Made by a program: the position numbers and the translations under genes. 15,263 bases of DNA from a virus (lineage: Duplodnaviria > Heunggongvirae > Uroviricota > Caudoviricetes), in the IMG/VR virus record IMGVR_UViG_2529292726_000023, positions 1-15,263 of that record; one strand, given 5' to 3'. The notes under the pieces are model-generated. The model saw nothing but the letters and a program-made list of their open reading frames with translations, ran no database searches and had not been told where the DNA came from. Below are positions 1-10,720 of this stretch, piece by piece (the first letter of the stretch is position 1; each line of letters opens with the position of its first letter).

Positions 1-403
<403 letters not shown>

Positions 404-469: not shown

Positions 470-832
470 TTAATGACCTGCTGCGCGGAGTTTTCCGTCA
501 GGTTCACCGGCAAGAGTCAGTAATTGTCCCTGGTCTTCCTGCAGAATAGTCAGGCGACCACCGCGATTGACATACATCGGCGTTTCGGTGGTGTCTTCTT
601 CGGAAATTTTCCCGCGGTTAGTCGGGCGGACATATGAGAGTTTATGTTTGATTTTCACACGGCTCTCATCAAACGGTTCGATTTCCAGGTTGAGTGAGAC
701 CTTACCTTTGGTTTTCGTGTTCATCACACCGGAAGCGACTTCACTGAGAACTGCGCCGATTTTGGTTTCAAATACGCCGCCGTCCAGCTCCCCGATAAAT
801 GCCTGTACATCAGTACTGCGTTCGCTAGCCAT
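470..832 (-). CDS. Hypothetical phage protein, 120 aa, first gene of the leftward early operon; function unknown
   Basis: ORF track 470..1018 trimmed to the ATG at 832, which has a GAGGAG RBS 7 nt upstream (MASERSTDVQAFIGELDGG...). No family confidently recognised; not Arg-rich like an N antiterminator. Confidence 0.6.
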   Translation of the reverse strand: MASERSTDVQAFIGELDGGVFETKIGAVLSEVASGVMNTKTKGKVSLNLEIEPFDESRVKIKHKLSYVRPTNRGKISEEDTTETPMYVNRGGRLTILQEDQGQLLTLAGEPDGKLRAAGH

Positions 833-880
833 TTTGCTGCTCCTCATCATATCGACCCTGCAAGGTCGGTTGGTTTCTCC

Positions 881-969
881 ACAAAACAGAGAAGAACACC
901 TGCGGTGGCAGCCGCCCGGATGGATTGGGTTATGAGCCCGTCGTCCGGTGATGCTCTTCTCTGTTTTGT
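881..969. repeat. Perfect 15-bp inverted repeat (ACAAAACAGAGAAGA at 881-895, TCTTCTCTGTTTTGT at 955-969) with 59-nt spacer, upstream of the 470-832 gene
   Basis: Direct reading of the sequence; arms are exact reverse complements. Confidence 0.7.
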
Positions 970-1014
970 AAAAAGAGCGGTACCAGCCGGAAGCAAGTGT
1001 ACAAACTGGTACCG
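968..1014 (-). terminator. Candidate intrinsic terminator or antitermination-site hairpin on the leftward transcript
   Basis: 10-bp perfect stem GCGGTACCAG (977-986) / CTGGTACCGC (1005-1014) with 18-nt loop; on the minus strand it is followed by TCTTTTTAC, which also resembles a boxA-like CGCTCTTTTTA. Confidence 0.35.
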
Positions 1015-1460
1015 CCAAAGCAGTGGCTGTTGTGGTGACCGGTGCTGATCTCCGGCTTGCGGTTATTTCAGACTCTCACGGGCGTTTAATTGCCCCGCCG
1101 AACAGCTCTTTTCCGCAATAGCTGCAATGTCTTTCGCGCATCAGCCTGCGCATTCACCACAACGCTGAGAGCACTTAGCCAGTTACGGCACCACACTTTG
1201 TCGCGGTTCCATAAATGCCCTCATCGTTGCACCCTGGTCTCTTCCCAGGCGTCAAACCGAATCGCCACGCTGGTTAGGCGTCTTATCAGCATCATCATTG
1301 ACTTGCACATTCCGGCTACCTGGTTTGTTTGCTCGAGCAAGGAGTGGATTGTCCCCTTTAACGTCACCAGACCGCTAACGACGCATGTGCCATACGCCGT
1401 ATTACAACCAAATTTTGTTAGTACCTTGTTTGTTGGTCTGGAAAGAAAGATAAAATGAAG

Positions 1461-1504: not shown

Positions 1505-1533
1505 GGGAAATGAAAAGCCACCTTTGGGTGGCT
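1505..1533 (-). terminator. Intrinsic terminator downstream of the repressor gene
   Basis: Stem AGCCACC (1516-1522) / GGTGGCT (1527-1533), loop TTTG; on the minus strand followed by TTTCATTT; lies 21 nt past the repressor stop codon. Confidence 0.55.
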
Positions 1534-1553: not shown

Positions 1554-2246
1554 TTAATTGTGTCGCTTAAGGGTTTGTGACTGGCTGATTAAGACCTTTC
1601 CAAAGACCATAAACCGGTGTTCATTTTCGCTGGTAATTCCCCATTCACGGTAAATCTGGTTATCAGAAATCACCAGTAGTTTGTCAGGTATCATTTGCAG
1701 TCGTTTGACATAAATTTTATCATCAAAACCAAATACATAGATACCATCTCCATCAAACTGATTGATACTGACATCAACGAAGATGAGATCTCCTGGCTCA
1801 ATGGTTGGACACATACTGTCCCCACGAACGTTGATAACTTTAATGTGATTGGCTGGTCGTCCGCCAAACATCGATACAGCATTATCAGTTCTGTATTCAA
1901 TGGCATGAATCACATCAATGACATCACCGCCCTGGATAAGGCCATTTCCCGCACTGGCACTGACATCCAGCATTTCAATACGGAATACATCCTTCACCTG
2001 CGCAACATCCTCACTAATACTGTTTTTACATACAGTATTACTTTTGAAGTCTGAGGTAAAGAGATCAGCAATATCAACACCTAAGCTCCTGGCAATATTA
2101 CTCAGGGCTTGTTCAGTGAATTGTTTCTGCTTACCTGTTTCCAGGCGCGAGATATTCGCCGCATCCACTCCTATTGCTTCAGCGAGATCGGCGATTTTCA
2201 TGTTCTTCGCCTGGCGAAGTTGTCTGACTCGATTTCCTATGTTCAT
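1554..2246 (-). CDS. CI-like prophage repressor, 230 aa: N-terminal XRE-type HTH plus C-terminal S24 (LexA-like) self-cleaving peptidase domain
   Basis: MNIGNRVRQLRQAKNMKIADLAEAIGVDAANISRLETGK HTH; C-terminal GDSMCPTIEPGDLIFVD with downstream KRLQ consistent with the Ser/Lys dyad; divergent from a Cro-like gene. Confidence 0.9.
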   Translation of the reverse strand: MNIGNRVRQLRQAKNMKIADLAEAIGVDAANISRLETGKQKQFTEQALSNIARSLGVDIADLFTSDFKSNTVCKNSISEDVAQVKDVFRIEMLDVSASAGNGLIQGGDVIDVIHAIEYRTDNAVSMFGGRPANHIKVINVRGDSMCPTIEPGDLIFVDVSINQFDGDGIYVFGFDDKIYVKRLQMIPDKLLVISDNQIYREWGITSENEHRFMVFGKVLISQSQTLKRHN

Positions 2247-2604: not shown

Positions 2605-3148
2605 GCATCACTGGAAAGTGGAAAAACAACCTGAGTGGTACGTGAAAGCTATCAGAAAAACTATCGCGGCATTGCCAGGTGGTTACGCTGAAGCTGCTGA
2701 CTGGCTGGATGTAACAGAGAACGCATTATTTAACCGCCTTCGTGCCGATGGCGATCAGTTTTTTCCGTTGGGATGGGCAATGGTTTTACAGCGTGCGGCT
2801 GGTACTCACCACATTGCGGATGCTGTCGCACAGTCTGCTGGTGGGGTGTTTGTATCACTTCCTGAAATTGAGGAAGTAGAGAACGCCGATATAAACCAGC
2901 GCCTGCTGGAAGTCATCGAACAGATCGGGAGTTACTCAAAGCAGATTCGTTCGGCAATCGAAGACGGGGTAGTGGAGCCACATGAGCAGACAGCAATTAA
3001 TGATGAGTTGTATCTGTCGATTTCGAAGCTCCAGGAACATGCGGCACTGGTCTACAAAATTTTCTGCGTTCCAGAAAAGAGTGACGCCCGCGAGTGTGCA
3101 GCTCCGGGCGTCGTGGCGTTTTGTGTCTGTGGAGAAACTAACGCATGA
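2597..3148 (+). CDS. Hypothetical early regulatory protein in the CII position, 183 aa; family uncertain (possibly CII/CP76-like)
   Basis: GTG start with AGGAGG RBS 6 nt upstream, overlapping the cro stop; stop overlaps the next start (ATGA). Family assignment is from position and memory only. Confidence 0.5.
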   Translation: MGKHHWKVEKQPEWYVKAIRKTIAALPGGYAEAADWLDVTENALFNRLRADGDQFFPLGWAMVLQRAAGTHHIADAVAQSAGGVFVSLPEIEEVENADINQRLLEVIEQIGSYSKQIRSAIEDGVVEPHEQTAINDELYLSISKLQEHAALVYKIFCVPEKSDARECAAPGVVAFCVCGETNA

Positions 3149-3750
3149 ACAGTTTAACGGCAAATAACCGTTGGTCGCAACAGCTGGTGGTCCGCGTGGC
3201 TGAACACCTGTTGTTACGGCATGAATGCAGATTACCAAATCACCTGGCTGTAAGTAACCACAGAGAACTTTACCTGACTGTGGGGGGCGAGTTGTGCAGG
3301 AACTTAACCGCTGGTTTCGTGACGGAAGAGGACTTTATGTTCATGTTATTCGTTGGGAGCCAGAAACACAGCGCGTTATCTATCTTCGCAAAGACTACCC
3401 GCATGAGTGCTTTAGTCCTTTGTGGAAATTCAGGCGTGATTTTGTTGAGTGTGAAGGACCACCAGCACATTGATTCTGCCATTCCGGGACGTTACACTGT
3501 TCAGGCACCTTATAAAGCGGGTGCCGGGCGTGGAAACCCGGAATTCACCAAAGCGCACAACCGCGCTCTTGCGGTTTTTTTGTGTCATGAGCAGCATTAC
3601 GCCCAAATTATGGTGGGGCGTGCAGGGCCAACTTCGGTTGGGCCGGGTTCTTTGGTGACCGGTATTTCCACCCCTGTACGTCTCACCACCAATAAGGTCG
3701 TGGAAAGCCTTGGTGGTGAGTTATTTAAAATCACCAAAGAGGCTGCCATC
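3145..3750 (+). other. Ambiguous coding region upstream of rha, in frame with it (no stop between 3145 and 4296); possible N-terminal extension, fusion or decayed gene
   Basis: ATG at 3145 is translationally coupled (ATGA) to the upstream gene, but the Rha domain has its own RBS and start at 3751. An alternative-frame ORF at 3294-3473 has a GGGGGG RBS 6 nt before its GTG. Confidence 0.35.
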
Positions 3751-4296
3751 ATGGCTACGATCCCAACCCTCACTCAACCTGAAATTGCCATCGTTGATGG
3801 TCAGGCTGTTACTTCATCCCTGGCTGTTGCCAACTTCTTCTCCAAACGTCATGACGATGTACTGAAAAAGATCCGCACGCTTGAATGCTCCGCATCATTC
3901 ACTGCCCGCAATTTTTCGGTGAGTGATTACACCGATTGCACAGGCCGCAAACTACCTTGCTATCAAATAACCCGCGACGGCTTTGCGTTTCTTGCTATGG
4001 GTTTCACGGGTAAACGTGCTGCCCAGTTCAAAGAGGCATACATCAATGCCTTTAACCAGATGGAGAAACAGCTTTCAAGGCCCGCTGTACCGAGCGACGT
4101 TGCACATAACGCCAGCGTTCTCTGTTCCTACATTTCATCAATTCATCAGGTCTGGCTGCAGCAGCTTTATCCTATGTTGGCAAAAGCCGAATCTCCGCTG
4201 GCTGTTAGCTTATATGACTATATTAATGATGCTTCGGCGCTGGCCTGCCTCATAAATTTGTCGCTGAACCCTTCAGAGGTAAGGGGGCGCAAATGA
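3751..4296 (+). CDS. Rha family phage regulatory protein, 181 aa
   Basis: MATIPTLTQPEIAIVDGQAVTSSLAVANFFSKRHDDVLKKIRTL matches the Rha domain N-terminal signature; AAAGAGG RBS 8 nt upstream of ATG 3751. May instead be the C-terminal part of a 383-aa ORF starting at 3145. Confidence 0.8.
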   Translation: MATIPTLTQPEIAIVDGQAVTSSLAVANFFSKRHDDVLKKIRTLECSASFTARNFSVSDYTDCTGRKLPCYQITRDGFAFLAMGFTGKRAAQFKEAYINAFNQMEKQLSRPAVPSDVAHNASVLCSYISSIHQVWLQQLYPMLAKAESPLAVSLYDYINDASALACLINLSLNPSEVRGRK

Positions 4297-9465: not shown

Positions 9466-9912
9466 TTAAGGTTTTAATTCATCAAGACGTTGTTGGATAG
9501 TGTTTTTGCTTGCGTTGTCTGTTATAGCCATTTGTTGTACTTGCCCCATTGCCATTTGAGTTTCCATCCACATATCGGCCCACACTTTTGTATCGTTATT
9601 AACTTGAGCGATAGTAAATCTGACTTTTGATACCGGGGTTGTTGAATAGGCATTTCCGATTAACATTTGTCCAAAAACAGCAGAGCCGCCTTCCAGTTCT
9701 TTACCACATATAACACTGCTGTTATCCGCGTTGTAAATTATCAACCCTCTACTATTGCAGTAATTCACAAGGGCATCTTTGACTTTATCTTTTGTCGTAT
9801 TTTGATAAACCCCCTCAGGTTTTCCTGATTGAGTTTTCTTTATCAATGGTACGGAAGAAGTACAACCTGAAATGATAGTTGCGCTAAGTAATAGTACAGT
9901 CATTTTATTCAT
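9466..9912 (-). CDS. Lipoprotein of unknown function, 148 aa, AT-rich moron between Q and the tRNA array
   Basis: N-terminus MNKMTVLLLSATIISGCTSS is a signal peptide with lipobox (ISGC); opposite strand to flanking late genes; local GC visibly lower than the neighbours. Confidence 0.7.
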   Translation of the reverse strand: MNKMTVLLLSATIISGCTSSVPLIKKTQSGKPEGVYQNTTKDKVKDALVNYCNSRGLIIYNADNSSVICGKELEGGSAVFGQMLIGNAYSTTPVSKVRFTIAQVNNDTKVWADMWMETQMAMGQVQQMAITDNASKNTIQQRLDELKP

Positions 9913-10180: not shown

Positions 10181-10256
10181 GGCCCTTTAGCTCAGTGGTG
10201 AGAGCGAGCGACTCATAATCGCCAGGTCGCTGGTTCAAATCCAGCAAGGGCCACCA
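10181..10256 (+). tRNA. tRNA with CAU anticodon, most like tRNA-Ile2 (lysidine type; a plain scan would call it Met)
   Basis: 76-nt cloverleaf GGCCCTTTAGCTCAGTGGTGAGAGCG...CTCATAA...GGTTCAAATCCAGCAAGGGCCACCA; anticodon CAT at 10214-10216; encoded CCA; resembles enterobacterial ileX/ileZ. Confidence 0.85.
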
Positions 10257-10257
10257 A

Positions 10258-10334
10258 CTGCCACTAGCTCATCAGGAAAGAGCGTCAACCCTTTAAGTTG
10301 AGAGTGCGAGGTTCGAGTCCCCGGTGGCGGTCCA
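10258..10334 (+). tRNA. tRNA-like gene with noncanonical anticodon loop CCTTTAA (position 33 is C); anticodon reads UUU (Lys) by standard numbering; identity uncertain, possibly a pseudo-tRNA
   Basis: Acceptor CTGCCAC/GTGGCGG (one G-U pair), D-stem GCTC/GAGC, anticodon stem TCAAC/GTTGA, T-loop TTCGAGT with one A-C mismatch in the T-stem, encoded CCA. Confidence 0.5.
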
Positions 10335-10336
10335 GT

Positions 10337-10412
<76 letters not shown>

Positions 10413-10415
10413 TGT

Positions 10416-10490
<75 letters not shown>

Positions 10491-10496
10491 GTTAGA

Positions 10497-10542
10497 GTCT
10501 TTCAGTCTGCGATGATGGGAAATCCCGGAGTGACTGAAAGAC
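10497..10542. repeat. Perfect 11-bp inverted repeat GTCTTTCAGTC / GACTGAAAGAC with 24-nt spacer
   Basis: Direct reading; immediately downstream of the tRNA array. Confidence 0.7.
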
Positions 10543-10550
10543 GTTTAAGT

Positions 10551-10620
10551 TATGAATGATCGCTTTTTTTGCAAAATTGCTGTGCAGAAATACTAACCTT
10601 CGGGCAGGCGATCATTCATA
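10551..10620. repeat. Perfect 13-bp inverted repeat TATGAATGATCGC / GCGATCATTCATA with 44-nt spacer
   Basis: Direct reading; spacer contains a T7 run and a possible promoter (TTGCAA ... TACTAA). Confidence 0.7.
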
Positions 10621-10696
10621 AGCACTCTGCTTTTATTCCGATTAACTGTGGGTGGTTTGTTGGATAGAGTGCTTCCCTTACTGTATATATCGTTTC

Positions 10697-10720
10697 GCCC
10701 GCTTTTGCGGGTTTTTCTTT
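10697..10720 (+). terminator. Strong intrinsic terminator just upstream of the lysis cassette (candidate tR'-type terminator read through by Q-modified polymerase)
   Basis: GCCCGC-TTTT-GCGGG hairpin (10697-10711) followed by TTTTTCTTTT. Confidence 0.65.

Follow-up and report, generated by a model that had tools for sequence, protein, structure and literature searches.

How is early leftward transcription controlled in lambdoid phages that have no N gene? The question arises from a viral sequence of 15,263 nucleotides (the window, by which we mean the whole stretch of DNA analysed), in which an earlier note, written from the letters alone, had pointed to inverted repeats and a boxA-like string ahead of a first leftward gene that does not resemble N. 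Bases 300-1600 of the window are 100% identical to E. coli strain 510016 and most of the stretch is found in about 800 genomes. According to the annotation of 510016 and of intact relatives, the leftward order from the immunity region is a CI-like S24 repressor, an unannotated gap of about 720 bp, yfdP, yfdQ and yfdR, and the rightward side carries cro, the CII-like YmfL, Ash/Rha, replication genes, Q, tRNAs and lysis genes. An equal layout is found in phages SfV, SfII, mEp460, cdtI, Ayreon and several Stx2 phages. No N gene was seen in the identical genome or in these annotated relatives, and the phage is an SfV/mEp460-type lambdoid prophage without an N gene.

The first early-left gene and its surroundings

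The gap between repressor gene and yfdP is bounded by recognizable control sites. The CI-like repressor gene (1554-2246, minus strand), identified by Pfam matches (HTH and S24 peptidase) and annotation, is followed by the terminator of its transcript at 1516-1533 (minus strand), which was found by a terminator scan and is annotated at the equivalent site in SfII and Ayreon. A search for the operator-like pattern TTGC-N7-GCAA returned five sites against 0.6 expected. Two sites, at 1461-1475 and 1484-1498, are taken as oL with an overlapping pL, the promoter being placed only approximately, and the interval from the repressor gene to cro holds a third, at 2267-2281. From the operators (1461-1498) and the repressor terminator (1533-1516), pL is placed about 480 nt upstream of the leader terminator described below, and the leader from pL to the first early-left gene is about 620 nt long. 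On the far side of yfdP, positions 1-350 (minus strand) are annotated in the identical genome as the end of an IS100 (IS21-family) insertion. With this IS100 copy about 120 bp downstream of yfdP, yfdQ is cut off and the remaining left arm removed; relatives align only from position 351 on and their yfdQ is intact. Beyond IS100, the identical genome continues with additional copies of IS66 and IS100 and with a tail gene that is broken.

The first gene of the early-left operon, yfdP (470-832, minus strand), encodes a 120-residue protein with a pI of 5.7 that is labelled 'protein YfdP' by PGAP in the 100%-identical genome. A Shine-Dalgarno sequence, GAGGAG (840-845, minus strand), stands 7 nt before the ATG at 832. 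The protein matches phrog_204 with an E-value of 4e-49 over residues 1-119, and PF27127 is present in all 120 listed homologs of the 281 found. The earlier note had called the protein non-basic and unplaceable in any family. The first half of this description stands, as YfdP is acidic (pI 5.7 compared to 11.0 for lambda N), possesses no arginine-rich motif and is thus unlike the small, basic, arginine-rich product of the first pL gene in lambda; the second half does not, since the profile searches which that note proposed place the protein in PF27127/phrog_204. The structure searches it also proposed returned nothing significant. A sequence search of the PDB gave no match for YfdP, and its AlphaFold model, of intermediate confidence (pLDDT 66), shows for residues 20-82 a single helix plus a meander of three strands. 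For this model Foldseek found nothing significant in the PDB and only unnamed phage proteins in BFVD. Within its phage family, which is uncharacterised, YfdP is a typical member, and a 2025 survey of lambdoid phages lists yfdP and yfdQ without known function (PMC12315714). A well-characterised family together with unconserved repeats had been named as grounds for giving up the earlier idea; the family is uncharacterised, and the terminator and junction that contain the repeats are kept in relatives.

Terminator and three-way-junction RNA in the early-left leader

Two perfect inverted repeats dominate the leader. The shorter one (10 bp) pairs 977-986 with 1006-1015 across a 19-nt spacer and overlaps the string CGCTCTTTTTA on the minus strand at 980-970; the longer one (15 bp) pairs 881-895 with 955-969 across 59 nt and extends to 25 nt at 84%. 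The 120-residue reading frame, the hairpin, CGCTCTTTTTA and the long repeat with its 59-nt spacer are all located where the earlier note had put them. The window holds no second repeat like the 15-bp one, for which the mean in 200 dinucleotide shuffles is 0.01. Repeats of 10 bp with a spacer of at most 30 nt occur seven times (five distinct sites) against a shuffle mean of 0.38. Folding of the 211-nt leader RNA yields -93.4 kcal/mol with z = -7.0.

The shorter repeat belongs to an intrinsic (Rho-independent) terminator at 970-1016 (minus strand). Its stem is formed by 1016-1006 and 986-976, its loop by 1005-987 and its U-tract by 974-970. The minus strand reads GGCGGUACCAG, 19 nt of loop and CUGGUACCGCU, followed by CUUUUUAC, so that a GC-rich 11-bp stem is directly followed by UCUUUUU on the transcribed strand, the combination that defines an intrinsic terminator. 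A simple terminator scan skipped the site solely because its 19-nt loop exceeds the permitted 8 nt. Relatives were gathered as loci coding for YfdP relatives from other species and as viral contigs containing the junction loop sequence. They contain about 40 different terminator stems, for example GCGGCGTC/GGCGCCGC, TGCCCATC/GGTGGGCA and GGCGGTTATCCA/TGGATAACCGCC, each 0-2 nt from a run of 5-8 T. The terminator adjoins about 106 of the 114 distinct junction copies and is located just upstream of the long repeat.

This arrangement disposes of the boxA-like reading of CGCTCTTTTTA. The string mismatches three of the ten specified positions of the gamma-proteobacterial boxA consensus GYTCTTTAANA (PMC5725501), and it follows a hairpin rather than preceding one. 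Its sequence is not conserved either: the equivalent stretch in relatives reads CGCAATTTTTT, CGCACTTTTTT or CGCCCTTTTT, with only the stem end and the T run kept. A search of the leader for the consensus with at most one mismatch found nothing, and the leader does not contain the lambda-type combination of boxA and boxB hairpin. The 10-bp hairpin and CGCTCTTTTTA are the stem, with its 3' end, and the U-tract of the terminator, not a boxA. A second boxA-like string, UGCUCUC, is located at 1167-1174 (minus strand) just 5' of the boxU element described below and reads UGCUCUUU in some relatives (homologous sites in loci L020 and L022); it mismatches GYTCTTTAANA at a minimum of three positions. 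Many relatives (L010, L026, L029, L030, L032, L033, L034 and L043) carry a conserved insertion in the terminator loop with the consensus GAGGAnGAAGAUAAUGUUCUG, which lengthens the terminator hairpin, leaves a AAUGUUCUG bulge, has the look of a Shine-Dalgarno sequence with AUG and is absent from the window. A leader peptide encoded in the terminator loop (the GAGGAUGAAGAUAAUGUUCUG insertion of some relatives) was considered and rejected: neither its frames nor its stops show conservation, and the insertion is missing from the window.

The longer repeat forms the core of the outer helix of a three-way-junction RNA of about 100 nt (876-974, minus strand), defined by minimum free energy folding, covariation and a covariance model. 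The 25-bp outer helix pairs 974-950 with 900-876, its 5' strand beginning within the terminator U-tract. Of the two inner arms, H1 (948-916) contains an internal loop and is capped by a 7-nt loop on an apical stem of 3 bp, and H2 (915-902) is short and variable. The fold was evaluated on a MAFFT alignment of 20 copies less than 96% alike; an alignment derived from the covariance model contains both strands and was excluded from pair counts. Standard pairs make up 95.1% of cells compared to 43-58% with slid partners, 11 pairs show double changes compared to 1-2 in the slid controls, and none of 500 shuffles reaches any observed measure. All three helices show covariation well above slid and shuffled controls. 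The folding and covariation analysis across relatives that the earlier note had advised was thereby carried out and bears out a structured element. A small GC hairpin (853-868, minus strand), predicted by folding, separates the junction from the Shine-Dalgarno sequence, and relatives keep its position with different sequences (CGGCGGTGGCAGCCGCC).

Model scores indicate that the conserved structure is formed by RNA of the coding strand. With the covariance model R1, the minus strand of the window reaches 116.5 bits and the plus strand 33.1 bits, and across every locus the coding strand scores 78-122 bits against 28-41 bits for the opposite strand. Five U-G pairs of the window helix would become A-C mismatches on the other strand. 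This strand specificity shows that the structure is RNA rather than DNA. The earlier suspicion of an RNA-based or processing device was thus right in kind: the leader carries a conserved, strand-specific RNA structure with a plausible role in termination or processing. R1 finds a single copy in the window and none in the pR operon. The junction was found neither in the literature searched nor in Rfam 15, which gave no match even at E-values up to 10, and Rfam and ARAGORN searches over the junction gave no match to hammerhead or other ribozymes, Y RNA or tRNA.

That the repeats might instead be a protein-binding palindrome in DNA, or that the region codes for a small protein, is highly improbable. 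Several phage records do annotate open reading frames over the structured RNA as hypothetical proteins, at 847-996 (minus strand) and 905-1048 (plus strand), and the 49-residue frame at 847-996 matches phrog_33599 with an E-value of 2e-17. The annotated frames are on both strands, however, and the G-U pairs and strongly strand-specific scores do not fit a DNA site. Substitutions are compensatory across the helix and not codon-wise, and relatives contain indels of 1, 2 and about 27 nt in H2, within the frame. Because of the covariation and these frameshifting indels, the 'hypothetical proteins' annotated here, phrog_33599 included, can almost certainly be dismissed as genes, and the annotation of structured RNA as protein is corrected accordingly. 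An in-frame upstream extension of the yfdP reading frame from a TTG codon (470-1018) was likewise rejected as a gene, as it overlaps the structured RNA and contains 1- and 2-nt indels in relatives.

Upstream of the terminator, the leader contains a further domain at 1029-1163 (minus strand). It is closed by a long-range helix of 10 bp with perfect complementarity between boxU (GUUGUGGUGA, 1163-1154) and boxD (UCACCACAAC, 1038-1029), which in the predicted fold surrounds three hairpins. BoxU and boxD are conserved in relatives, including one fully compensated variant, GTTGTGAC/GTCACAAC; the fold of the window's domain is no more stable than shuffles (z = -1.1). An N-like peptide starting from boxU (VVNAQADARKTLQLLRKRAVRRGN) was rejected as unconserved, its frame comprising 24 codons in the window, 75 in SfV and 9 in locus L011. 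More generally, small open reading frames of the leader are not conserved and match no N-like family. The earlier statement that the region encodes no N-like antiterminator thus holds, for YfdP as for the leader.

Spread of the cassette and its invariant loop

Terminator and junction travel together as a cassette that stands ahead of the first early-left gene whatever the identity of that gene. Distinct copies number more than 100 and come from Escherichia, Shigella, Salmonella, Klebsiella, Enterobacter, Kosakonia, Providencia and other genera. The gene following the cassette is YfdP in 80 cases, RdgC in 15, YfdR in 7-8 and others for the rest. In some Klebsiella-type phages, junction copies with short stems are also found in late leaders before holin genes (L073, 1917-1971; L146, 12006-12060). 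In Klebsiella phage GZ7 (L158, 2508-2579) the order is Q, pR', terminator, tRNA-Asn, tRNA-Arg and junction, with the junction beginning 5 nt after tRNA-Arg, closed by a 6-bp stem and followed by ACCA, like a third, D-arm-less member of the tRNA array. In locus L134 the junction directly follows the operators and promoter with no terminator in between, which indicates that the terminator is not obligatory. The K-12-type yfdP locus (CPS-53; L008 and L017) has neither terminator nor junction and instead carries tandem GATTTTGACGG-like repeats upstream.

The apical loop of H1 is the most conserved part of the element. The near-invariant sequence GGCUCAUAACCCAAUC occupies 938-923 of the minus strand (feature 923-940). 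It recurs in 18 of 24 loci that were collected from other species via YfdP, a set hence unbiased toward the RNA. The 14-nt segment CGGGCUCAUAACCC (940-927) is identical to positions 29-42 of the E. coli initiator tRNA, spanning three G-C pairs and the entire 7-nt anticodon loop of tRNA-fMet. The tRNA-fMet sequence was confirmed by a 100% match in 5426 of 5426 E. coli genomes (median of 4 copies). In natural variants of the loop, AA at positions 37-38 is replaced by UC or UA, or the first G of GGG is missing (CGGCUCAUAACCC). Within the window, no complementary target for the loop was found in cis or in trans save its own antisense strand, and pairing of the loop with the yfdP Shine-Dalgarno sequence was discarded as inconsistent across loci.

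The junction is nevertheless not a tRNA by standard criteria. It possesses no D arm, and in the window ARAGORN and the Rfam model RF00005 call only the four tRNA genes at 10181-10490 (plus strand; CAU, Lys, Thr and Gly), which are located between Q and the holin gene. The CAU tRNA of this cluster presumably resembles tRNA-Ile2. The tRNAs are followed at 10497-10720 (plus strand) by two long hairpins with perfect repeats of 11 and 14 bp and by a terminator-like GCGGG hairpin with U-tract (z = -5.2). The junction model found no match in the tRNA cluster and hairpins (10181-10720). Also between Q and the tRNA cluster, a 148-residue reading frame with a moron-like look is present on the opposite strand (9466-9912, minus).

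Known systems and possible functions

Several known phage RNAs share features with the cassette. In position it matches the lambda N leader, where a large hairpin sensitive to RNase III comes between nutL and the first pL gene, immediately ahead of the latter (Wilson et al. 1997, 2002, cited in PMC5725501). Both are long, highly structured RNAs between pL and the Shine-Dalgarno sequence of the first leftward gene, and both contain a helix of more than 20 bp, the kind that RNase III cuts. With 25 consecutive pairs the window helix exceeds the approximately two turns (at least 20 bp) of an RNase III substrate, and early-left copies keep the helix by covariation. In contrast to lambda, the cassette comes without N and without boxA and boxB, an intrinsic terminator precedes the element, the helix closes a three-way junction whose tRNA-like loop is invariant, and the element is also found in late leaders and tRNA arrays. 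The put elements of HK022 are likewise located close to an early promoter of an N-less lambdoid phage, but HK022 contains two copies (L and R) compared to one in the window, and put lies upstream of the terminators it suppresses, acting in cis through the zinc-binding domain of the RNAP beta' subunit. Put consists of two stem-loops without a closing helix (PMC9378689). The put-like site proposed in the earlier note is thus not borne out: a two-stem-loop element of about 70 nt was not found, the retrieved HK022 putL and the junction show no sequence similarity, R1 finds nothing in HK022 and the window carries a single copy.

Two families of small RNAs show partial likeness. STnc100 and PasD are related prophage sRNAs described near Q, stx and lysis genes (RF02076; bioRxiv 10.64898/2026.05.13.724894). 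The upstream leader domain resembles them in that a UGGUGAAU...CACCA helix closes it, a CCGG..CCGG hairpin lies inside and a terminator ends it, and differs in its location in a pL leader; the three-way junction falls outside the STnc100 family. The SfV homolog of domain plus terminator scores 39.5 bits (E-value of 3e-7) against the Rfam STnc100 model, below the gathering score of 47, and the window copy gives no match at E-values up to 10, so that the boxU-boxD domain with terminator appears STnc100-like by resemblance, not by membership. PasB was rejected as a name for the junction RNA, because PasB sits in a structural-gene operon. As for the C4/CI antisense RNAs of P1, P7 and P4 (RF01695), these are tRNA-like RNase P substrates and resemble the junction in their long closing stem, two inner hairpins, one with a functional loop, and a CCA-like 3' flank, which reads ACCA in the GZ7 copy. 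In the junction, however, the hairpins are arranged in the opposite order; cmscan gave no C4 match over 870-1016, and the window contains no complementary a1/b1 or seqA/seqC sites.

A genuine C4-type RNA is located elsewhere in the window. An adjoining pair of isrK (67 bits) and C4 antisense RNA (83.6 bits) is found at 3505-3693 (plus strand) within the annotated 383-residue Ash/Rha frame (3145-4296), which suggests that this long open reading frame call could be wrong. The pair is also present in SfV and in P4, where the C4-family match lies inside the annotated cI region and is taken by us to be the CI immunity RNA. Roberts et al. in 2007 reportedly described a 'transcription-termination-mediated immunity' of SfV. 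We considered and rejected this system as an identity for the pL leader, as the P4-like C4/isrK of SfV and of the window is in the rightward operon; that work most likely concerns window positions 3505-3693.

How might the cassette function? We tentatively propose, with close to an even chance of being right, that the terminator acts as an attenuator or insulator and that the junction is processed into a stable, tRNA-like RNA, with N, nut and put uninvolved. The terminator would stop most pL transcription and any read-through of the repressor transcript, and the resulting leader RNA would share the build of the prophage sRNA STnc100. Polymerases passing the terminator would make the junction. 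By analogy with the lambda N leader, its long double-stranded helix is a likely RNase III substrate, and in the tRNA-array version the 6-bp stem with ACCA would likely serve as an RNase P-type substrate. These cuts would detach the yfdP mRNA, in trimmed form, from the leader and would free a stable tRNA-like small RNA whose invariant loop would bind a conserved host factor. The terminator would in this way attenuate and insulate the left operon. Too much of the products of this operon is harmful: over-expression of the yfdQRST cluster is reported to inhibit replication initiation (PMC4776307). RNase III could not act on the late-type outer helices, which comprise only 6-8 bp, so that the copies cannot all share one processing route. 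The proposed mechanism does not explain how enough polymerase passes the terminator on induction.

It has to be weighed against two other readings of the junction. One is that it represents a new class of cis-acting processive antiterminator, performing a put-like job while unrelated to put, which binds RNA polymerase and replaces the missing N. Such a role would suit a phage family lacking N, an element that comes soon after pL (immediately after it in L134) and that precedes a terminator in late leaders (GZ7); specialists also guessed at put-like antitermination for phage LLS, which carries part of the motif (PMC12315714). We nonetheless consider it unlikely, given that the junction matches HK022 putL in neither sequence nor structure, put lacking a closing helix, and that the pR operon has no copy to accompany the one in the window. 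The abutting terminator, moreover, is upstream of the element and cannot be suppressed by it, late copies coexist with the Q antiterminator, and no strong sense-strand terminators were found downstream in the left operon of mEp460.

The other reading takes the junction RNA as a trans-acting mimic of the initiator-tRNA anticodon arm, either a decoy or inhibitor of enteric toxins of the VapC/MvpT type, which cut this tRNA in its anticodon loop, or a binder of MetRS, IF3 or the 30S P site that modulates initiation. The identity of CGGGCUCAUAACCC to tRNA-fMet, including its three G-C pairs and 7-nt loop, is one argument here, along with a loop that stays near-invariant while the helices covary and does so independently of the neighbouring gene, the placement of the GZ7 element with its ACCA in a tRNA array, and natural variants whose changes fall precisely on loop positions 37-38. 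The anticodon loop of initiator tRNA is cut by the VapCs of both S. flexneri and S. Typhimurium (PMC5175351), and Shigella and Salmonella, together with E. coli and Klebsiella, are among the hosts of these phages. Yet the likeness is purely one of sequence, some variants lack the first G of GGG (CGGCUCAUAACCC), the arm below the three G-C pairs is unlike tRNA, neither ARAGORN nor the Rfam tRNA model calls the element a tRNA, and no evidence was found of VapC acting against phage; we regard the mimic as improbable. Attenuation with processing of the junction is the reading put forward here. A bolder combination, in which a mobile, tRNA-derived leader RNA of N-less lambdoid phages is excised from early-left or late transcripts and acts in trans on a factor reading the initiator anticodon arm (a VapC-type nuclease, MetRS, IF3 or the 30S P site), is a speculative idea to which we assign only a small chance. 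If true, such a trans-acting excised leader RNA would be a new kind of phage RNA mimicry.

For early-left control in the many N-less lambdoid phages (SfV, SfII, mEp460, ST64B, LLS, cdtI and several Stx2 phages), the 2025 survey could only guess at a put-like mechanism (PMC12315714). A concrete conserved RNA cassette, absent from Rfam, is now defined at the early-left control point, with clear boundaries, a structure and an invariant loop that can be mutated. The match of this loop to the initiator-tRNA anticodon arm represents a specific lead on its function.
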